64,000 nucleotides of DNA from an uncultured archaeon. GTDB taxonomy: Archaea; Iainarchaeota; Iainarchaeia; Iainarchaeales; JAAZKV01. A program made the position numbers and the translations under genes. The number at the start of each line of letters is the position of its first letter. Positions within the stretch are counted from its first letter, which is position 1. The stretch covers positions 224,621 through 288,620 of the forward strand of contig CAZHNO010000001.1 in assembly GCA_964534045.1 (NCBI GenBank), written 5' to 3'. Shown here piece after piece: positions 1,078 through 42,368 of the stretch. The notes beneath the pieces are model-generated. The model saw nothing but the letters and a program-made list of their open reading frames with translations, had not been told where the DNA came from and ran no database searches.

Positions 1078-1226
1078 GCCCCGATAGTGTAGTGGTTAAG
1101 CATACTGCCTTCTCAGAGCCTTGCTAAGGCTCGCGAAAGAATTTGGCTATTTTCAATAGCCAGAAAGCGAAAATTAGTAAAAGCTAGAATTAGGCAGTGA
1201 CTCGGGTCCGAATCCCGGTCGGGGTA
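1078..1226 (+). tRNA. tRNA-Glu (anticodon CTC) with a ~76-nt intron at the canonical 37/38 position (approx. 1116..1191)
   Basis: Manual cloverleaf: acceptor GCCCCGA/TCGGGGT (G1-U72 wobble), D-arm GTGT/GCAT with AGTGGTTAA loop, anticodon stem CTGCC/GGCAG, loop TTCTCA|intron|A, T-arm TCGGG-TCCGAAT-CCCGG, discriminator A. Exon sequence resembles archaeal tRNA-Glu. Confidence 0.6.
1116..1172 (+). repeat. conserved two-hairpin RNA element, copy A, inside the tRNA-Glu intron
   Basis: GAGCC-TTGCTAA-GGCTC hairpin, then CGAAAGAATT, then TGGCTATT-TTC-AATAGCCA hairpin. It is near-identical to 17488..17540, with three compensatory base-pair changes in hairpin 1. Confidence 0.55.
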
Positions 1227-4085: not shown

Positions 4086-4162
4086 AAAAATTTTGAAAAA
4101 GGAAGTCTTTAAAAAGTAATTAAACTGAAATTAACTATCAATGAACTAAAAGTTCACAATAT

Positions 4163-4234
4163 GCCTTCGTAGCACAGCGGTAGTGCACGGGTTTTGTAAA
4201 CCTGAGGCCGGGGGTTCAAATCCCTCCGAAGGCT
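4163..4234 (+). tRNA. tRNA-Thr (anticodon TGT), intron-less
   Basis: Acceptor GCCTTCG/CGAAGGC, D-arm GCAC-AGCGGTA-GTGC, anticodon arm CGGGT-TTTGTAA-ACCTG, T-arm GGGGG-TTCAAAT-CCCTC, discriminator T. Confidence 0.75.
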
Positions 4235-4284
4235 TATTTCTTAATTCTAAAAAAAACAACATTATTTTGGGAATGCAAACACTT

Positions 4285-4331
4285 ACCTGAAAGGGTAAAG
4301 GGTTTGCGGCGTTAAAATCCCTCCGAAGGCT
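4285..4331 (+). pseudogene. degenerate duplicate of the tRNA-Thr 3' half (att-like remnant)
   Basis: ACCTGA..GGCGTTAAAATCCCTCCGAAGGCT repeats tRNA-Thr positions 39-73. The last 17 nt of the tRNA plus 12 nt of downstream flank (TATTTCTTAATT, through 4343) are identical to 4218..4246. Confidence 0.5.
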
Positions 4332-4451
4332 TATTTCTTAATTTAATTGTACATTTAACTGAAAAAAACTAGTTCTAAAAATAATGTTTTAACTTTGATT
4401 AATGAGAAAAGTTTTTATTATTGGCTACCCTGTTTTTAAGGTTGGTTAATT

Positions 4452-5783
4452 ATGCGTGCTCAAGGAACAATTGAATATTTAGTTATTATTGCTGTTGTTG
4501 TGGTTGTTGCATTAATTGTTGTGGGTTTGCTAGTAACTTTAATGGATTCGGGCGGAGATATTTCTGGAACAAGCAATCAAATTAATTATAATACACAAAC
4601 TCTCGCTTTAAATGACTATATTGTTTCAACTGATGGAAACTTTTTATTAGAAATAAAGTCAAATGAAGTGGGAAACATAACAATAGATAACGTGTCTATT
4701 GATAATGAAGAACAAGATTTTACAACAAACAATACAATCAACCTTGGACAAGAAAGATTAATAAAAATAGAATCTAGCACAACATGTGAAGAAGGGCAAA
4801 CTGTGACAGCACAAACAATCACAATAACCTATACTTCAGCAAACGGATTAACAAAAAAACAAATTTACGAAAATGTATCAATTCCTTGTCAAAATTATAC
4901 AAATCCAAACCAAACCCAACTACTGGGTGGAACAACAACACAATCAGAAGAAGATGCAAGTTGTGATGATTATGCCACAACAGATGGAGAAGATATTACT
5001 GATGATGGAACATATTGCACGGCAGTGTTTTTATCAGATGGAACTTTTACCGCACTAACTTCATTTAACGCAGAAGTTCTTGTTGTTGCTGGTGGAGGCG
5101 GTGGTGGTGGACCAGTTCATGCAGGTGGTGGTGGAGCAGGCGGTCTTGTTTATGATGATTCTTATTCCATTTCTCCAGGAGAAATTGAAGTTGTTGTTGG
5201 AGCTGGTGGTGCTGGTGGTGAAGGATGGAACATAACAACGAGCCCGGGGGAGAATGGTTCAAATTCAATATTCGATTCTATTGAAGCAATTGGTGGTGGC
5301 GGTGGAGCATATTGGTATCAAGGTGCATCCACTGCAGGAATAGGTGGTTCTGGTGGTGGTGCTGCACCTGAGCCAGAGGCAGCAACTGGTGCTATAGGGA
5401 CGGATGGGCAAGGATATGCTGGTGGTGGATCTTATGGTAGTACTAATGCTGGTGGAGGCGGCGGGGCTGGAGAAGCTGGAGAAAAAGCAGTATCTGGAAA
5501 AGCTGGTGACGGTGGGGATGGTGTCGAATATGATATTTCAGGAGAATCTGTTTATTATGCTGGTGGAGGCGGCGGAGGTGTTCACGAAGGTACTGCTACT
5601 ATTGGCCAAGGTGGTTTAGGTGGTGGCGGTGATGGAGGCGGAAATACGGTTGGTACTGCAAATGGCAATGATGGAACTGCTAACACAGGAGGTGGCGGTG
5701 GAGGTGCAGGGGGGACATCAGGGAGTTCTTATGCTGGTGGTGCTGGAGGATCAGGAATAGTAATAATTAGATACTTAAAATAA
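4452..5783 (+). CDS. type IV pilin-like protein (class III signal peptide, QGTIEYL motif) with Gly-rich C-terminal domain
   Basis: N-terminus MRAQGTIEYLVIIAVVVVVALIVVGLL is an archaeal prepilin-type signal. The C-terminal ~250 aa are poly-Gly rich (GGGGGGGPVHAGGGGAGG...). The N-terminal ~163 aa are ~85% identical to the pilin-like protein at 31289. Confidence 0.6.
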   Translation: MRAQGTIEYLVIIAVVVVVALIVVGLLVTLMDSGGDISGTSNQINYNTQTLALNDYIVSTDGNFLLEIKSNEVGNITIDNVSIDNEEQDFTTNNTINLGQERLIKIESSTTCEEGQTVTAQTITITYTSANGLTKKQIYENVSIPCQNYTNPNQTQLLGGTTTQSEEDASCDDYATTDGEDITDDGTYCTAVFLSDGTFTALTSFNAEVLVVAGGGGGGGPVHAGGGGAGGLVYDDSYSISPGEIEVVVGAGGAGGEGWNITTSPGENGSNSIFDSIEAIGGGGGAYWYQGASTAGIGGSGGGAAPEPEAATGAIGTDGQGYAGGGSYGSTNAGGGGGAGEAGEKAVSGKAGDGGDGVEYDISGESVYYAGGGGGGVHEGTATIGQGGLGGGGDGGGNTVGTANGNDGTANTGGGGGGAGGTSGSSYAGGAGGSGIVIIRYLK

Positions 5784-14481: not shown

Positions 14482-16029
14482 ATGAATAAAAAATTGAATA
14501 ATATTGCACAAGGAACAATTGAATATTTAGTAATTATTGCAATTATTATTGTCATTGGTTTACTTGTCGTTCAATTATCTTTGAGTTTATTTGATTCTGA
14601 AAGTGTTTCTAACACTAGTAATAAAATTGGTTCCAAAATTGGTTCTGGGAGCATTAGTATTTTAGAAGCAGTTGCTGATGATAATTCTTTAGTAATTGCT
14701 TTATCTTCAATAGGAACAGATGGAATAAATTTAACCAAAATTACTATTGATGGAGTAGAAAATTATTATGAAAATCAATACTTACTTAATGCTCGTAGTT
14801 TTATATTAACAGAATTATCAAACAATTGTGCCTGTTCTAGTATGCAGAGTTCTAGAACTTGTTCATTTCAATTCACTTACACTACAAGAAATGGTTTAAC
14901 AAAAACAACAGACCCAATAAACGTTACTATTAATTGTACAACAAACATAAATCAAGAAAATCCAAATTATACTCAACCAACAATACAAGATTGTTATGAT
15001 TTAACAGAAGATCCAATCCAAATTTGTACGCTTAGTGATTTGAATAAAATCAGAGATGATTTAAGTGCAAATTATCAACTAATGAACAATATTGATGCTT
15101 CATCTACAAACACTTGGAATAATGGAGAAGGTTGGGAACCAATCGGAGATGGAGATGAATATTTTACTGGAACATTTGATGGACAAAATTTTGAGATAAG
15201 TAATCTTTACATAAATCGAACAAATACTTATGTTGGCATGTTTGGTTGGACAAGTGGCCCAATTTCTAATGTTGGTTTAACTGATGTAAATATCACTGGA
15301 AGTAGTGGAATTGGCGGAATTTCTGGAAGAAATCATTCAACAATAAGTAATTCAAATGTTTCTGGAAATATTAATGGAAATAATAAAATTGGAGGCATTA
15401 GCGGTTTTAATTTTAGTACAATAACAACTTCACATTCAAGTGCAAACATTACTGGAACTTATGAAATTGGAGGAATATCTGGGTACATTGATGGAGGGAC
15501 AATTACTTTATCTTATTCAACAGGAAATATTACTGGAACTGGTGATAATATAGGTGGAATTTGTGGGCGTAATGAAACTGGTTCAATAACAAAATCATAT
15601 TCAACAGGGAATATCTTTGGAGAAGACAAAATTGGTGGTTTACTTGGTTATAATGATGGTGGAACAATAAGTAATTCTTATTCCACTGGAAATATAACTG
15701 CCAGTGGCAGTAGTGTTGGTGGGTTGATTGGCTCAACAACAGGTGGAACAATTAATTATTCTTATTCCATTGGAGAAGCAAGTGGAGTTAGTAATGTTGG
15801 CGGATTAGTTGGAAATAATATTTTAGGAACAGCAACAAATTCATATTGGAATGTTACAACATCAAACTTAGACACATCAGCACTCGGAGAAGGAAAAACA
15901 ACATCTGAGATGAAAACACAATCAACATTTACTAATGGAAGCTGGGATTTTGACACTATTTGGCAAATTCAAGAAGACACAACATATCCATATTTAATAG
16001 ATAATATTCAAAACCCATTACCCCAATAA
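14482..16029 (+). CDS. type IV pilin-like protein (class III signal peptide) with C-terminal GLUG-type repeats
   Basis: N-terminus MNKKLNNIAQGTIEYLVIIAIIIVIGLLVV. The C-terminal half is tandem ~22-aa repeats of the form IGGISG.N.STI.NS.S.GNITG / VGGLIG...GGTI.YSYS.G. Confidence 0.6.
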   Translation: MNKKLNNIAQGTIEYLVIIAIIIVIGLLVVQLSLSLFDSESVSNTSNKIGSKIGSGSISILEAVADDNSLVIALSSIGTDGINLTKITIDGVENYYENQYLLNARSFILTELSNNCACSSMQSSRTCSFQFTYTTRNGLTKTTDPINVTINCTTNINQENPNYTQPTIQDCYDLTEDPIQICTLSDLNKIRDDLSANYQLMNNIDASSTNTWNNGEGWEPIGDGDEYFTGTFDGQNFEISNLYINRTNTYVGMFGWTSGPISNVGLTDVNITGSSGIGGISGRNHSTISNSNVSGNINGNNKIGGISGFNFSTITTSHSSANITGTYEIGGISGYIDGGTITLSYSTGNITGTGDNIGGICGRNETGSITKSYSTGNIFGEDKIGGLLGYNDGGTISNSYSTGNITASGSSVGGLIGSTTGGTINYSYSIGEASGVSNVGGLVGNNILGTATNSYWNVTTSNLDTSALGEGKTTSEMKTQSTFTNGSWDFDTIWQIQEDTTYPYLIDNIQNPLPQ

Positions 16030-16593: not shown

Positions 16594-17442
16594 ATGATTG
16601 GAGAATTATTTGTTGGAGAATTACTTGTCAATCAATTTTTACAAACATTTATGCCAACTTTTAACTTATTTTTTCAAACAATAACTTTTTTTGGACACCC
16701 TGCTTTATGGCTTTTAATTGCAGCATGGTTATTTTGGTTAGGCAAAGAAAAAAAAAGTTTTACTCTGGTATCAATTGTATTATTTTCTTCTCTTATTTCA
16801 GGAGCATTAAAATTTATTATTGCTAGACCTCGTCCAGAAGGATTAATTGTTTTAGAAAAAACACCCACACAATTATCAATGCCATCAGGACACTCTGTTT
16901 TAGCTGGAACAATTTATTCTTTTTTTGAAAAAAAGGTTTATCCAAAAGAAAGAATTTTACTTTTTATTTTAATGATGCTCACTGCAATTTCTAGATTGTA
17001 TTTAGGAGTGCATTACATTAGTGATGTTTTTGCAGGATTGCTGATTGGTTATTTTATTGGAAAACTAATGCTTGTGCTTGAAAAGAAAATCAAAAAATCT
17101 TCTTTAAAAATAACAAAATTCAAAGAAGAAAAAGAATTATTTATTTTATTTATAGTTTCTATCGCATCACTTGTTTTGTTACCAGAGACATTTGCTCTTG
17201 GCTACTCTGTTTTAGGATACTACTTTGGTTTTGTGATTTATAGACACAACAAAATGAAAATAAAAAATTCTTGCAACCAATTAATACTTGGAACTTTAAT
17301 ACTAGCAATACTTGCATACTTTGCTTTTACTTTGGAAGGATATTATAGCTTTATTTTATTCTTCGTTGCTGGAATGTTTATTACAATAATCTGGCCTACT
17401 GCCTTTAATAAAGGCTGGCGAAAAGAATTTGACATTTGCTAG
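16594..17442 (+). CDS. PAP2-family membrane phosphatase (phosphatidic acid/undecaprenyl-diphosphate phosphatase-like)
   Basis: PAP2 motifs KFIIARPRP, PSGHS, SRLYLGVHYISD in a polytopic membrane protein. Confidence 0.65.
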   Translation: MIGELFVGELLVNQFLQTFMPTFNLFFQTITFFGHPALWLLIAAWLFWLGKEKKSFTLVSIVLFSSLISGALKFIIARPRPEGLIVLEKTPTQLSMPSGHSVLAGTIYSFFEKKVYPKERILLFILMMLTAISRLYLGVHYISDVFAGLLIGYFIGKLMLVLEKKIKKSSLKITKFKEEKELFILFIVSIASLVLLPETFALGYSVLGYYFGFVIYRHNKMKIKNSCNQLILGTLILAILAYFAFTLEGYYSFILFFVAGMFITIIWPTAFNKGWRKEFDIC

Positions 17443-17449
17443 TGCAAAT

Positions 17450-17561
17450 GCCAGAAAACAAAAAACTAAACTTTAAAAACACCCCCACGGCTTTGCTAAA
17501 GCCGGCAAAAGAATTTGGCTATTTTCAATAGCCAGAAAACAAAAAAACTAAACTTTAAAAA
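17450..17561 (+). repeat. ~1.5-copy tandem duplication (two 30-nt direct repeats GCCAGAAAACAAAAAA(A)CTAAACTTTAAAAA) bracketing copy B of the two-hairpin RNA element
   Basis: The sequences at 17450..17479 and 17531..17561 are near-identical. The intervening 17480..17530 carries CGGCT-TTGCTAA-AGCCG and TGGCTATT-TTC-AATAGCCA hairpins homologous to 1116..1172. Confidence 0.5.
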
Positions 17562-17940
17562 TACTCTCACTTCCATTTCTTAGTAGGATGAAATCCGAAA
17601 GGAAAAAGTCCGTGTTCCGAACGAAAGTGAGGAAGAGGGATTGCAAAAAGCAATCGCTCCCAGATGTGAACTGGCTGGGCAGTTCCCCCCTTAGTTTAGT
17701 AGCTAGAACGCTTGGCTGTAGTTCCTGCTTTTCTTTAGGAAAGAAAAGCTAGGTTACCAAAAGAAAATTTGGTGATTTAAAGATTTTAGAGCAATCTGAT
17801 ACAAGCATTCGGTTCAAACTGGTAAAAAAAGGAATTCTCTAAAGTGCTAGTGTAAATAGCACAAAGCGTGTTCCGGACCAGCCGATCGGAAGCGGCTACC
17901 GAGAGATCCCCGGTGCAACTCTGGGAGGGGGGATTTTTTT
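17562..17940 (+). ncRNA. structured non-coding RNA: candidate RNase P RNA (SRP RNA not excluded)
   Basis: No ORF. GGAAAAAGTCCG resembles the RNase P CR-I/P4 5' strand GGAAAGUCCGG. ACAAAGCGTGTTCCGGACC near the 3' end resembles CR-V ACARAA..CCGG with a complementary CGGAC. Possible P1 pairing TCTC/GAGA. Multiple hairpins. Ends in a T8 tract (17933..17940). An RNase P protein Rpp29 gene is present at 58960. Confidence 0.4.
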
Positions 17941-17962
17941 AAACAAAAAAATCTAAAAGAAC

Positions 17963-24595: not shown

Positions 24596-24797
24596 ATGGG
24601 CTTTTTCATAAGCAATTTAATTGGAATAGATTTTGCAAAATAAGTGAGCTTTTTAAAACTTCTTAGTTAAATTTTCTTTAATAACATTTGATACATGGGA
24701 AAAGCTTTATCAAACAAAGATAAAATAATACCAAATTGTTCCGAATGAAATGAAGAAGACACCAAAGGTGTCCGATTCAATGCAACGGAATGCCGTT

Positions 24798-24950
24798 GCC
24801 CTGATAGTCTAGTGGTTAGGATGCACCCCTGTCAACTCGCGCAAGCGAGGTAGGAAATCCAAAGTTTTCTTTGGGCTACCCTACACCTTTCTTTTCCTAA
24901 AAGAAAGGGGCGGTTCGGGTGCGACTCGGGTTCGAGCCCCGGTCAGGGCG
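24798..24950 (+). tRNA. tRNA-Asp (anticodon GTC) with an ~81-nt intron at 37/38 (approx. 24835..24915)
   Basis: Acceptor GCCCTGA/TCAGGGC, D-arm GTCT-AGTGGTTA-GGAT, anticodon stem CACCC/GGGTG flanking CTGTCA|intron|C, T-arm TCGGG-TTCGAGC-CCCGG, discriminator G. The intron folds into several hairpins including a CTCGC-GCAA-GCGAG tetraloop hairpin. Confidence 0.6.
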
Positions 24951-29967: not shown

Positions 29968-31236
29968 TTATTTATTCTCAACTAATTTGAAAACATTATC
30001 ATTTATTCTAACTCTTTCTTTTACTTTGATTCCAACCATGTCGCCTTTTTTTGCACTTGTTCTTTCTTTATGTTCTGTTTGCATTGACTCTAATTTCTGC
30101 TCTAAAAAAGTTGTTACTCCTTCAATAATTAATGAATCACCAATTTGCACAGGTGCAAGGACACGAACTTCTGCAACATTTATTTTCGCATAATACTTTC
30201 TAACAATTCCAACCTGGACTCTTTTTTGCTTTTGATTGCTTCCTTGAATATCAGTAATATCTTTTTCTGTTGGTTTTGAGAGGTAGAAGCCTGTTGAGAA
30301 TTTTCTATTATACACTTTCCCAAGCTCTGTGTTCCAATTAGCAATTTTTTCTTTAGTGAATGTTTTGCTTGCAACTGAATCAATTCCTTCTCTGTAAACT
30401 CTTGTTACATAAGAAACATAATCACTTGGTTTTGTTCTTCCTTCAATTTTCAAAGCACAAACTCCAGCACTAATTATTTTGTCTAAGAAGTCAATTGTTT
30501 TCAAATCTTTTGCTGAAAGAATTGTGTTTCCAAAAATTTCAACTTCTTTTTTTTCAAAATTTGGTTTATCACCATCAAGGAAAAAGGCTCTCTGCGAAGC
30601 ATTCCCGCGCGCGGATTTTTCCTCAAGGAAAAATGGGCGCCTGCAAGGTTGTAAGCATTGCCCCCTATTAGCGCTTCTTCCAAATAATTCGTGCGATAAA
30701 AAACATCTTCCTGAAATGCTTATGCACATTGCTCCGTGAATAAAAACTTCTATTCCCATTTTCAATTTGTTTGCTTTTGAAACAATTTTTTTTATTTGCT
30801 CAAGCGAAAGTTCGCGTGCAAGCACAACTCTTTTTGCACCCAATTTTTTGTATTGTTCTAATGCTAATGTGTTTGCTATTGATGCTTGTGTTGAAACGTG
30901 TAATTCTAATTTATATTTTTTTACTAAATACATTACTCCTAAATCAGAAGAAATTACTGCATCTACTTTTGCTTCTTTTGCTTTTTTTAAAATTTGTTCT
31001 ATTTTTTTTAATTCTTCATCAAAAGTTGTTGTATTTAATGCTAAATATCCTTTCACTTTATTTTCATGCAAATAATTCATTAATTTTTTTAATTCATTTA
31101 AAGTAAAGTTTGTTCCAAGGTCACGCATATTGAAACCTTTGATTCCAAAATAAACAGCATCAGCTCCATTTTTCACTGCTACAATCGCGGTTGTAAAATT
31201 TGCTATTCCTGTAAGAAGTTCTGGTTTGTTTTTCAT
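29968..31236 (-). CDS. peptidase-U32-family protein (RlhA/UbiU/TrhP-like Fe-S enzyme family)
   Basis: N-terminal TIM-barrel-like GADAVYFGIKGFNMR and signature E.FIHGAMCISISGRCFLS with a downstream RGQCLQPCRRP Cys cluster. I trimmed the start to MKNKPELL because the longer ORF runs into the divergent pilin gene upstream region. Confidence 0.7.
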   Translation of the reverse strand: MKNKPELLTGIANFTTAIVAVKNGADAVYFGIKGFNMRDLGTNFTLNELKKLMNYLHENKVKGYLALNTTTFDEELKKIEQILKKAKEAKVDAVISSDLGVMYLVKKYKLELHVSTQASIANTLALEQYKKLGAKRVVLARELSLEQIKKIVSKANKLKMGIEVFIHGAMCISISGRCFLSHELFGRSANRGQCLQPCRRPFFLEEKSARGNASQRAFFLDGDKPNFEKKEVEIFGNTILSAKDLKTIDFLDKIISAGVCALKIEGRTKPSDYVSYVTRVYREGIDSVASKTFTKEKIANWNTELGKVYNRKFSTGFYLSKPTEKDITDIQGSNQKQKRVQVGIVRKYYAKINVAEVRVLAPVQIGDSLIIEGVTTFLEQKLESMQTEHKERTSAKKGDMVGIKVKERVRINDNVFKLVENK

Positions 31237-31288
31237 AAAACAATTTAATAGCGAAACAAATTTAAATAAAAAAGAGAAACAATTTGTG

Positions 31289-32506
31289 ATGGCAAAAAAA
31301 ATTTTTGAAAAAAAAGCACAAGGAACGATTGAATATTTGGTTATTATTGCAATTGTTGTGGTTGTTGCATTAATTGTTGTTGGTTTACTAATAACTTTAA
31401 TGGGTTCTGGAGGAGATATTTCTGGAACAAGCAACCAAATAAATTATAAAACACAAACACTTGCTTTAAACGATTATTTAGTTTCAACAGACGGAAACTA
31501 TTTGTTAGAAATAAAATCAAACGAAGTTGGAAACATAACAATAGATAATATTTCTATTAATGGAGAAGACACACCCTTCACAACAAACAATACAATAAAC
31601 CTCGGACAAGAAAGATTAATAAAAATAGAATCCAGCACAACTTGTGAAGAAGGACAAAAAGTAGCCACACAAAACATAACAATAACATACACCACAACAA
31701 ATGGATTAACAAAAAAACAAACATACGAAAGTGTATCAATCCCTTGTCAAAATTATACAAATCCAAACGAAAACCAACTACTGGGTGGAACGACAAGCGA
31801 AGCATCTGAAGATGAAATTGATCCGGCCATAACCCAATTAAGAAGTGGTTTGGTTGGATATTGGCCACTTGATGAAACGAGCGGAACGACCGCTTATGAT
31901 AATTCAGGAAATGGGTATAATGGGGAATTAATTGACGGGGCAGTATTTGCTAGTGGTGGTTTAATTGAAGGCGCAGTAGATGTTGATCCAAGAAATACAT
32001 CCAATTATAAAAGAGTAATGATTGATATACCAAAACAAAATAGTTTTACATATCAAATTTGGAGTAAAAGATCTGTAACTGGACACCAAGAGCTTATTTA
32101 TAGAAGCAGTGATTCTACTTCTAGCCCATTATCAATGCTTGGTTTTGGAAATAACTCTCAATTTTTTATAAAACCATTTGGTTCGGAGCATTGGGGGCCA
32201 TCTGTTTCTTGCCCAGGCGATTATTGTTTTAGTAACATAGATATTTGGTATCACGTTGTAATAACTTATGATTCGGCAACTGGTGAACTTAAAAATTATG
32301 TTAACACTTTACCAATAATAAATCAGTCTGTTGGAGCCAGTCAAAGTGAAAGTGGAGACATACTCTTCTTTGGGGGAAGAAATACTAGTTGGGGTGGTCT
32401 AAGTGGACTAATTAGCGAAGCTGCGTTTTGGGATAGAGCATTAAGTTCGGATGAAATAGAATCACTTTATAATGAAGGAAATGGATTAAGCTTAAAAATT
32501 AGTTAA
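31289..32506 (+). CDS. type IV pilin-like protein (class III signal peptide) with C-terminal LamG/concanavalin-A-like lectin domain
   Basis: MAKKIFEKKAQGTIEYLVIIAIVVVVALIVVGLL. The N-terminal ~170 aa are ~85% identical to 4452. The C-terminus (GYWPLDETSGTTAYDNSGNGYNG...DIWYHVVITYDSATGELKNYVN...LISEAAFWDRALSSDEIESLYNEG) is a classic LamG-type jelly-roll pattern. Confidence 0.6.
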   Translation: MAKKIFEKKAQGTIEYLVIIAIVVVVALIVVGLLITLMGSGGDISGTSNQINYKTQTLALNDYLVSTDGNYLLEIKSNEVGNITIDNISINGEDTPFTTNNTINLGQERLIKIESSTTCEEGQKVATQNITITYTTTNGLTKKQTYESVSIPCQNYTNPNENQLLGGTTSEASEDEIDPAITQLRSGLVGYWPLDETSGTTAYDNSGNGYNGELIDGAVFASGGLIEGAVDVDPRNTSNYKRVMIDIPKQNSFTYQIWSKRSVTGHQELIYRSSDSTSSPLSMLGFGNNSQFFIKPFGSEHWGPSVSCPGDYCFSNIDIWYHVVITYDSATGELKNYVNTLPIINQSVGASQSESGDILFFGGRNTSWGGLSGLISEAAFWDRALSSDEIESLYNEGNGLSLKIS

Positions 32507-41972: not shown

Positions 41973-42368
41973 ATGAAATTAAGCATGGATGAAATCCTGT
42001 TAATTAATGCTCTTGAAGAAGTTTCAAGAGTTCAAGCAAAGGATTGTATTGCAGAGGGCAATATGGTGACTTACTTGGTTAATGGAAAAGAAGTTGGCAA
42101 AGCCATTGGAAAAAAAGCAACAAATGTTAAATTGCTGGAAAATAAAATAAAAAAGAAAATAGAAATAATTGGTTCTTTTAAAGAACCAGAAGAAATTTTG
42201 GCAAAAACATTTGACGTAAAAATAGAAGAAAAGGAAAAAAAGAGTGGAAAATTAATTTTGAAATTAAGTGCTTTGGATAAGAAAAAGGTTTTTAGTAAAG
42301 CAAGTAGATTCAAAAGAGTAAAAGAATTAGTAGAGAGAAATTATGGAGTAGAAATGATTCTAAATTAA
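41973..42368 (+). CDS. nusA: archaeal NusA homolog (two KH domains)
   Basis: Conserved position after L30e; KH-like GKAIGKKATNVKLLENKIKKKIEII. Confidence 0.7.
   Translation: MKLSMDEILLINALEEVSRVQAKDCIAEGNMVTYLVNGKEVGKAIGKKATNVKLLENKIKKKIEIIGSFKEPEEILAKTFDVKIEEKEKKSGKLILKLSALDKKKVFSKASRFKRVKELVERNYGVEMILN

Follow-up and report, generated by a model that had tools for sequence, protein, structure and literature searches.

Canonical archaeal tRNA introns lie between positions 37 and 38 and are flanked by a bulge-helix-bulge motif at which EndA cuts, the exons then being joined by RtcB. According to a review (PMC4090602), the mechanism of tRNA intron transposition is unknown and is presumed to operate at the DNA level; the same review summarises the intron transposition reported in Thermoproteales in 2010, with copies inside other tRNA genes at motif-forming sites, a proposal by which introns interrupt attB sites of viruses in tRNA-Glu(CUC) and other tRNAs, and the case of Haloferax volcanii, whose tRNA-Trp intron also serves as a box C/D guide RNA. 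For Caldiarchaeum subterraneum, it has been proposed that an integrating mobile element disrupted tRNA genes, created tRNA introns and scattered tRNA fragments (PMC3293823). In this study, we analyzed a two-hairpin element in a 64,000-nucleotide (nt) stretch of DNA from an uncultured archaeon of the Iainarchaeota (Diapherotrites), a DPANN lineage (hereafter, the window). One copy of the element (A) is located in the intron of a tRNA-Glu(CUC) gene, and two further copies (B and C) are located upstream of a tRNA-Tyr(GUA) gene.

As in Thermoproteales, closely related intron sequences are here not limited to a single locus, and their relationships depart from the tree of the host gene; unlike in Thermoproteales, the second locus is intergenic, in the promoter/leader of tRNA-Tyr, where the copies are in tandem with promoters and cannot be spliced, and the lineage is DPANN. 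The gain and loss of introns and the stray tRNA-related fragments among close relatives resemble the situation in Caldiarchaeum, as do the repeat scars that flank tRNA genes (tRNA-Thr in the window; tRNA-Glu at L014 and L006, where L-numbers denote retrieved loci of relatives or assemblies) and the integrase gene beside tRNA-Glu in L043/44. However, the stray copies in the present case consist of intron only, without exon, and the interval between the copies is syntenic core genome, with no foreign DNA and no recombinase in the ORFs (open reading frames) scanned. With the tRNA-Trp intron of H. volcanii, copy A shares the character of a conserved, structured intron for which an RNA-level role can be proposed, but it has no C/D boxes and no Rfam snoRNA match, and its host tRNA is a different one. 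What is new in comparison with these precedents is that extra copies are present outside tRNA genes, in tandem with a promoter, and swap alleles with the intron.

Copy A constitutes the 5' three-quarters of a canonical 37/38 bulge-helix-bulge intron of tRNA-Glu(CUC). The gene and the parts of its intron are as follows.

1078-1225, plus strand: tRNA-Glu(CUC) gene, with the 5' exon at 1078-1115, the intron at 1116-1191 and the 3' exon at 1192-1225
1116-1132, plus strand: hairpin 1 of copy A, GAGCCTT-GCT-AAGGCTC, for which alternative folds were computed; five of its seven pairs change on both sides
1133-1141, plus strand: conserved, purine-rich linker of copy A, GCGAAAGAA, the final six bases of which open AAAGAAUUU
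1142-1164, plus strand: hairpin 2 of copy A, TTTGGCTATT-TTC-AATAGCCAGA on a conserved UUUG/CAGA foot; five of its ten pairs change on both sides
1165-1191, plus strand: intron tail, AAGCGAAAATTAGTAAAAGCTAGAATT, in which GCGA pairs with UCGC (1131-1134) and GCT-AGAA is the 3' strand of the splice motif

The tRNA-Glu gene, overlooked by both default scans (ARAGORN and Rfam), scores 42 bits against the Rfam tRNA model and is called tRNA-Glu(ctc) with a 76-nt intron by ARAGORN when introns are allowed. Both features that define a canonical archaeal tRNA intron were found at copy A, namely the interruption at 37/38 and a strict bulge-helix-bulge motif, tactgcc-TTCT-[CAG]-agc ... gct-AGAA-[TTA]-ggcagtg (helix, 3-nt bulge, 4-bp helix, 3-nt bulge, helix). 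Orthologues lacking the intron read TTCTCAAGGCAG, which fixes the splice points and hence the intron at 1116-1191, at position 37/38. The tRNA-Asp and tRNA-Tyr genes of the window carry introns of the same kind; compared with canonical introns, copy A is distinguished by an interior that is unusually conserved between species (between the window and L009, 2 of 76 intron positions differ and 3 of 72 exon positions), by its covarying two-hairpin core, and by the existence of copies outside tRNA bodies, without the splice motif (B, C and B', the orthologue of B in a sister genome).

In the minimum-energy fold of the whole pre-tRNA, the intron forms a rod consisting of the splice motif, AGC/GCU, UUGCUAA/UUAGUAA, UCGC/GCGA, an internal loop GAAAGAA/AA, and hairpin 2 at the tip. 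The 5' arm of hairpin 1 has alternative partners: besides closing hairpin 1, it pairs with 1183-1185 to give the splice motif's inner helix, and with 1174-1180 to give the longer rod helix. The closing helix covaries, being UCGC/GCGA in the window and UUGC/GCAA in L014, and the long-range helix of L026 is GAUUUUUUU/AAAAAAAUC; neither the closing helix nor the long-range helix can form in B, C or B'.

The extragenic copies are arranged upstream of tRNA-Tyr as follows.

17401-17455, plus strand: copy C, with hairpin 1 GCCTTT-AAT-AAAGGC (17401-17415), linker TGGCGAAAAGAA and hairpin 2 TTTGACATTTGC-TAGT-GCAAATGCCAGA (17428-17455)
17456-17487, plus strand: promoter copy 1, AAAACAAAAAACTAAACTTTAAAAACACCCCCA, with a B recognition element (BRE)/TATA-like sequence TTTAAAAA at 17472-17479
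17488-17536, plus strand: copy B, with hairpin 1 CGGCTTT-GCT-AAAGCCG (17488-17504), linker GCAAAAGAA and hairpin 2 at 17514-17536; 89 bits in the covariance model
17537-17568, plus strand: promoter copy 2, with a TATA-like sequence at 17554-17561, the proximal promoter of tRNA-Tyr
17569-17684, plus strand: 5' leader of tRNA-Tyr, ending in a hairpin that abuts the first tRNA nucleotide; no Rfam match
17685-17932, plus strand: tRNA-Tyr(GUA) gene, with a 176-nt canonical 37/38 intron at 17722-17897

The preliminary description of this DNA had recognized A and B as copies of one element, and this holds. The exact 31-mer AAAGAATTTGGCTATTTTCAATAGCCAGAAA is present at 1136-1166 and 17508-17538 and occurs exactly twice; a match to it with up to three mismatches was obtained in none of 100 dinucleotide-preserving shuffles and is not expected by chance. 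BLAST aligns A with B at 87.5% identity over 56 nt (E = 1.5e-13), and the similarity extends weakly up to the intron end (~76 nt), fading toward the 3' end of the intron. Hairpin 2 of B is identical to that of A. Between A (1116-1172) and B (17488-17540), 9 of 57 positions differ, and six of the nine make up three compensatory pairs in hairpin 1 (GAGCC/GGCTC in A, CGGCT/AGCCG in B), the loop TTGCTAA being the same in both; the fully compensatory nature of these changes had also been pointed out previously. Both copies fold into two hairpins (A, -20.2 kcal/mol, z = -3.0; B, -19.2 kcal/mol, z = -3.9). Copy C, directly upstream of B, was recovered by the covariance model (38 bits, E ~1e-7) and has the same layout as A and B with other stem sequences. 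The region of B and C is identical, base for base, in the independent Logan assembly L001, which rules out an assembly artefact.

B and C show neither of the two characters of an intron. No tRNA body was detected around 17400-17570 by the ARAGORN and Rfam scans, and no splice motif brackets B or C in a strict scan of 17300-17960 (10 matches overall, against a shuffle mean of 5.9 +/- 2.8); introns located in the tRNA-Tyr leader were rejected on this ground. B and C are, instead, extragenic paralogues of the intron body, without exons or splice motif. They are part of a tandem array of ~86-nt units, each composed of the element and a copy of the tRNA-Tyr BRE/TATA promoter, between a PAP2 gene (16594-17442) and tRNA-Tyr. 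The two promoter copies are 94% identical over 35 nt, and their likeness to the archaeal TATA consensus and to the upstream site of tRNA-Thr at 4108-4115 suggests a promoter role. A CRISPR-like array was also considered and rejected: the hairpin "repeats" vary, the promoter "spacers" are constant, and there are only two units.

Copy C has in addition become part of a protein gene. The PAP2 ORF continues across hairpin 1 and the linker, and takes from C both its final codons and a TAG stop (17440-17442), which falls in the loop of hairpin 2; C has been co-opted as coding sequence (17399-17442). The PAP2 orthologue of L038 is six residues shorter and has an unrelated ending.

Among relatives, the site upstream of tRNA-Tyr is found in the following states.

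L040, upstream of tRNA-Tyr: one BRE/TATA-like promoter (AAACTTTAAAAATACTC), element absent
L038 (sister genome), upstream of tRNA-Tyr: promoter, B', promoter
Window, upstream of tRNA-Tyr: C, promoter, B, promoter
L039, upstream of tRNA-Tyr: promoter present twice, with an unrelated insert of 60 nt in between

B and C have an A-rich tail in common (AAAACAAAAAA...). The empty site of L040 has this tail as well, which assigns it to the target and not to the element. C is absent from the orthologous L038 site; in B', both hairpins have changed and are still paired. The L038 contig stops directly behind promoter copy 2, in CACGGC, which resembles the beginning of a further unit.

The region 17560-17684 had been described as an RNase P-like non-coding RNA, which does not hold: it has no RNase P match in Rfam and is the 5' leader of tRNA-Tyr(GUA). 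The tRNA-Tyr gene itself is overlooked by ARAGORN and Rfam on the genomic sequence, and is called tRNA-Tyr(gta) by ARAGORN at default settings after in-silico removal of the intron; at a relaxed threshold, ARAGORN also identifies the L040 and L039 orthologues as tRNA-Tyr. For annotation, this means that standard tools miss intron-containing tRNAs of DPANN archaea, here both tRNA-Tyr and tRNA-Glu.

A covariance model built from A, B and L009 recovers and aligns eight copies from five genomes; another seed alignment, in which a loop had been trimmed artificially, was left out. In the alignment, 95% of cells are paired, a count inflated by the fitting of the alignment to the model, and 10 of the 17 pairs have changes on both sides. 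The covariation values were reached by none of 500 column shuffles, and fell to near zero when the partners were slid by one to three columns. Pair 2 of hairpin 2 is an invariant U.G on the plus strand, and pair 5 is G-C, C-G, A.C or C.A, with A.C or C.A in three of the eight copies. The foot of hairpin 2, UUUG/CAGA, is constant across copies except in B' (UUUA/UAGA), and AAAGAAUUU, which runs on into this foot, is invariant in eight of nine copies, including all the extragenic ones, the deviating copy being L026 with AAAGGAAUUU.

Selection on RNA structure had been proposed from the A/B comparison. Conservation of the two-hairpin structure with real covariation, as judged from the eight copies, the shuffles and the slid controls, bears out one part of this proposal, but covariation by itself does not demonstrate any function other than self-folding. 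Proper presentation of the splice motif may be the sole constraint on the hairpins, and compensatory change can be mimicked by quasi-palindrome correction or by gene conversion between alleles. The covariation pattern also bears on the idea that the palindromes are DNA-level protein sites, for example an operator at which a dimeric protein would regulate the tRNA-Tyr promoter, with the intron copy being incidental. In favour of this idea, TGGCTATT-TTC-AATAGCCA is a perfect 8-3-8 palindrome ~30 bp upstream of a TATA-like box; yet whole stems are exchanged without loss of pairing (GGCTATT, ACATTTGC, ACCAA...), whereas an operator conserves sequence, the conserved part is the non-palindromic linker, and the best-conserved copies are inside a tRNA intron without a downstream promoter. 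We regard an operator as very improbable, because the covariation pattern already largely refutes it.

The element was searched for among relatives in two ways. A pattern scan, in which hairpin 2 was left free, covered 185,579 genomes (GTDB set) and JGI metagenomes; all its true matches are tRNA-Glu(CUC) introns, and the other 18 are coding-region coincidences. The pattern required the A-rich tail, and divergent copies such as B' were thereby missed. Intron-bearing genes were found in L009 (Ca. ainarchaeum sp.), in L006 = L018 and L024 (archaeon SO_2017_LW4_146) and in L014. Synteny at the HAD gene next to tRNA-Glu led to a further intron, that of the closest relative, L026 (90% identity in the HAD protein); its architecture is unchanged but its stems are wholly different, GGATTTTT-TTC-AAAAATCC and CCATTTGC-TAAT-GCAAATGA. 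L018 and L014 have additional hairpins between hairpin 1 and the linker. The tRNA-Glu genes of L027-29 carry an intron of unrelated sequence, and those of L030-37, L041, L042 and L043/44 carry none.

Covariance-model searches returned only A, B and C in the window (filters off), and only tRNA-Glu introns and B' in ~170 kb of relatives' loci. By the covariance model and BLAST, the element is not present in the tRNA-Tyr or tRNA-Asp introns of the window. A hairpin at 42169-42189 (16 bits, E ~0.06-0.16) was dismissed as a chance match, being inside an ORF and without the linker. The wider search of the genome, of related genomes and of other tRNA introns that had been suggested has thus been carried out for the window and these loci. 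Absence from the orthologous introns of close relatives, previously named as evidence that would speak against the element, applies to part of them: L009, L006/L018/L024, L014 and L026 carry it, but many orthologues are intron-less or have another intron (L027). The intron family is confined to tRNA-Glu(CUC) in a subset of relatives, and its signature is hairpin 1, single-stranded AAAGAAUUU, and hairpin 2 on the fixed UUUG/CAGA foot.

Comparison of the intron with the array reveals that within-genome paralogues are more alike than between-genome orthologues. The core of B is identical to the window's own intron at 31 of 31 positions, and to its positional orthologue B' at 22 of 35. The core of C, on the other hand, is identical at 33 of 37 positions to the intron of L026 (BLAST, 89% over 46 nt, E = 2e-10), so that one extragenic copy has the intron allele of the sister genome; between the window and L026, 48 of 76 intron positions of tRNA-Glu differ, against 3 of 72 in the exons. 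The hairpin 1 loop has G in A and B, and A in L009, L018 and B'. This combination, of paralogues exceeding orthologues in likeness and of C bearing the sister allele, is characteristic of sequence exchange between intron and array, either by ectopic gene conversion or by re-copying on repeated occasions; we infer that the exchange proceeded by gene conversion. Of the three roles envisaged in the preliminary description (a protein-binding processing signal, a small mobile, intron-derived module, or an embedded small RNA), the second fits best, with the extragenic copies being intron-body paralogues that exchange sequence with the intron.

We consider it probable, although far from certain, that these observations reflect a structurally constrained family of protein-spliced introns, the body of which was duplicated at the DNA level upstream of tRNA-Tyr and is still exchanging sequence, and the hairpins of which are kept for formation of the splice motif. 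According to this explanation, the hairpins and the short closing helix (UCGC/GCGA) would fold the 76-nt insert onto itself, and the self-folded insert would allow formation of the anticodon stem, of the central helix of 4 bp and of both 3-nt bulges, and thereby cleavage by the endonuclease. The excised intron would be discarded, and its stems would therefore be free to change while the pairing stays. A DNA-level duplication would have made B and C, and ectopic gene conversion would exchange them with the intron, B now holding the allele of this genome and C that of the sister genome. The constraint would thus be self-folding for splicing, and B and C would be by-products in or beside the tRNA-Tyr leader and not functional RNAs. 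What the data establish directly is that the copies are homologous, that A belongs to an intron, that the stems covary, that the distribution is patchy and that alleles have been swapped.

Several points weigh against this explanation. The full pre-tRNA fold swaps hairpin 1 for a long-range helix, so that a need for hairpin 1 in splicing is not evident; archaeal splicing is not known to depend on any structure other than the splice motif. The hairpins of B and B' are perfectly paired after many changes, and AAAGAAUUU persists in every extragenic copy while the stems have diverged. Such maintenance of pairing is unlike decaying by-products, unless conversion from intron alleles keeps renewing them. 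The A.C and C.A combinations at pair 5 would be G.U on the minus strand, so that wobble pairs cannot settle which strand folds. Finally, the covariation is drawn from only eight copies with six distinct versions of hairpin 2, which are mutually related, and from the model-fitted pairing counts noted above.

The persistence of the linker and hairpins at the extragenic site in two genomes is better explained by a functional cis-acting RNA module, through which a protein would be recruited to the discarded parts of pre-tRNAs, i.e., the tRNA-Glu intron and the tRNA-Tyr leader. The putative binding site would be the invariant single-stranded AAAGAAUUUG(G) between the hairpins, which is retained while both stems turn over, and a candidate binder is an Sm-like archaeal protein: GAAUUUGG fits the loose Sm consensus (R-A-U3-6-G-R) and sits between two stem-loops. 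Sm-like archaeal proteins are tied to pre-tRNA and RNase P processing only circumstantially (PMC3710371). All copies are oriented as the flanking tRNA genes and are plausibly transcribed, B being downstream of promoter copy 1. In a variant of this explanation, the intron might survive its excision as a stable RNA, either small or circular. However, base pairing of the UUUG within the hairpin 2 foot is predicted, three U residues are short for an Sm site, and the start site of promoter copy 1, as judged from the TATA spacing, would lie inside hairpin 1 of B and yield no two-hairpin RNA. The module is also dispensable, as many relatives have no intron and L040 has no extragenic copy.

No known RNA family was identified for the element. 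Rfam searches of the whole window at gathering thresholds, and of both loci at E <= 10, returned tRNA matches only, the best non-tRNA scores (SmY and mir-320, 15-21 bits) being far under the thresholds. None of the eight copies has a C box (RUGAUGA; TGATGA) or D box (CTGA), and an ACA box is not consistently placed, which ruled out a C/D or H/ACA guide RNA. By inspection only, the internal loop GAAAGAA/AA, between UCGC/GCGA and UUUG/CAGA, does not have the GA-opposite-GA register of an L7Ae-binding kink-turn. In view of this balance, we believe that an RNA module is unlikely, although it is the main alternative.

Another explanation is that the element is a miniature mobile DNA element or a scar, such as one resembling miniature inverted-repeat or palindrome-associated transposable elements (MITE/PATE-like) or an integrase remnant, which landed in the anticodon loop of tRNA-Glu and in the promoter of tRNA-Tyr. 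Its stems would then pair as inverted terminal repeats or through quasi-palindrome correction, and not through selection on RNA. The insert at tRNA-Tyr is indeed flanked by ~27-nt direct repeats of the promoter in the window, L038 and L039, and the L040 site is empty. A layout of direct repeat, ~60-nt hairpin-rich insert and direct repeat is also present at tRNA-Thr (4211-4340), and L014 and L006 show it upstream of tRNA-Glu in the form of 75-nt units in tandem; a tyrosine integrase gene lies beside the intron-less tRNA-Glu in L043/L044, and the distribution of the intron is patchy. On the other hand, only two loci, with three copies in the window, were found to carry the element in the window and ~170 kb of relatives' DNA, and the window ORFs scanned include no transposase or integrase. 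A 27-nt repeat is too long for the target-site duplication of a transposase, and integrative elements are longer than the 57 nt of this insert. An invariant linker between hairpins that vary independently of each other would be an awkward footprint, and the repeats never include the tRNA-Glu exon, unlike an att site, the 16-kb interval between A and B being core genome. We consider a mobile element or scar to be quite unlikely. The specific possibility that A and B are the att sites of a 16-kb integrated element was rejected, as relatives share the interval in synteny, its genes are ordinary ones, no recombinase was found among the scanned ORFs, and the repeat consists of the intron only.

In a more far-reaching interpretation, the intron may have been caught in transit: the array would be a DNA-level donor or reservoir, with alleles written to or copied from tRNA-Glu by gene conversion, and/or the hairpin, AAAGAAUUU, hairpin arrangement would be a new protein-binding motif of discarded pre-tRNA parts in DPANN archaea. 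We hold this interpretation to be rather doubtful. If it is true, the array would provide a first concrete intermediate in the movement of bulge-helix-bulge introns, which has long lacked an explanation. The locus unites intron-less and intron-bearing orthologues, extragenic paralogues without the motif, and swapping between intron and array in two sister genomes. It can thus be used to test models of DNA-level intron movement, such as gene conversion and tandem duplication, and could show whether the structured core of an intron acts beyond being spliced out.

A second hairpin module, CTTTTCTTT-N-AAAGAAAAG, was observed in the tRNA-Tyr intron (17728-17748), the tRNA-Asp intron (24888-24906) and the tRNA-Glu intron of L027, which is unrelated in its other parts. 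A looser pattern of this module has two matches in the window, both in tRNA introns, against 0.12 expected, which suggests that hairpin modules are exchanged among introns.

Repeats were also observed around other tRNA genes. The 3' end and trailer of tRNA-Thr, at 4211-4243, are repeated at 4308-4340 (94%, 33 nt) with a ~60-nt hairpin-rich insert between them, and the whole of 4211-4340 gives the impression of an att-type scar or of a tandem duplication on a small scale. In L014 (845-1095), three tandem 75-nt units upstream of tRNA-Glu each open with tRNA nucleotides 1-15 (GCCCCGATAGTGCAG); next come a hairpin that varies between units (GAGCC..GGCTC GCGAAAA, or AAAACTTTT..AAAAGTTTT) and a segment complementary to the tRNA 5' end, CACTATCGG. 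Fragments similar to these units are present in L006 (minus strand, ~210-360). In L043 (962-2131) and L044 (962-2044), which belong to the Diapherotrites metagenome-assembled genome (MAG) GCA_026397015.1, genes for a tyrosine recombinase (Phage_integrase) and a DNA methyltransferase are located directly downstream of the intron-less tRNA-Glu(CUC). The adjoining integrase indicates that tRNA-Glu is an integration target in this lineage, and bears on the suggestion that attB sites are protected by introns.

The leader of tRNA-Tyr belongs to a family common to tRNA-Glu, tRNA-Asp and tRNA-Tyr genes in several genomes. Members of this structured family were found in the window at 1020-1077, 17596-17684 and 24735-24797, and also in L009, L026, L027, L030, L039, L041 and L042. 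Their layout is ...CGAA..GAAGA, a hairpin that is often CACCRAAGGTG, CCCAGATG, and a terminal hairpin abutting the first tRNA nucleotide. The terminal stem covaries (GCCTG/CAGGC, AACTG/CAGTT, AACGG/CCGTT, ACTGG/CCAGT). The family has no Rfam match and could bear on 5'-end maturation in this lineage.

The window is AT-rich (~30% GC) and encodes, among others, a wyosine-formation enzyme and a DUF2666 protein; the closest homologues of the neighbouring proteins are in Candidatus Diapherotrites/"ainarchaeum" MAGs. A 300-nt direct repeat (4458-4757 and 31316-31615, 86% identity) joins the 5' ends of two ORFs, which encode a glycine-rich protein (4452-5783) and a Laminin_G_3/class III signal-peptide protein (31226-32506), and a weaker third copy is present at 14485-14599. 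This repeat is probably a shared N-terminal pilin-like signal region.

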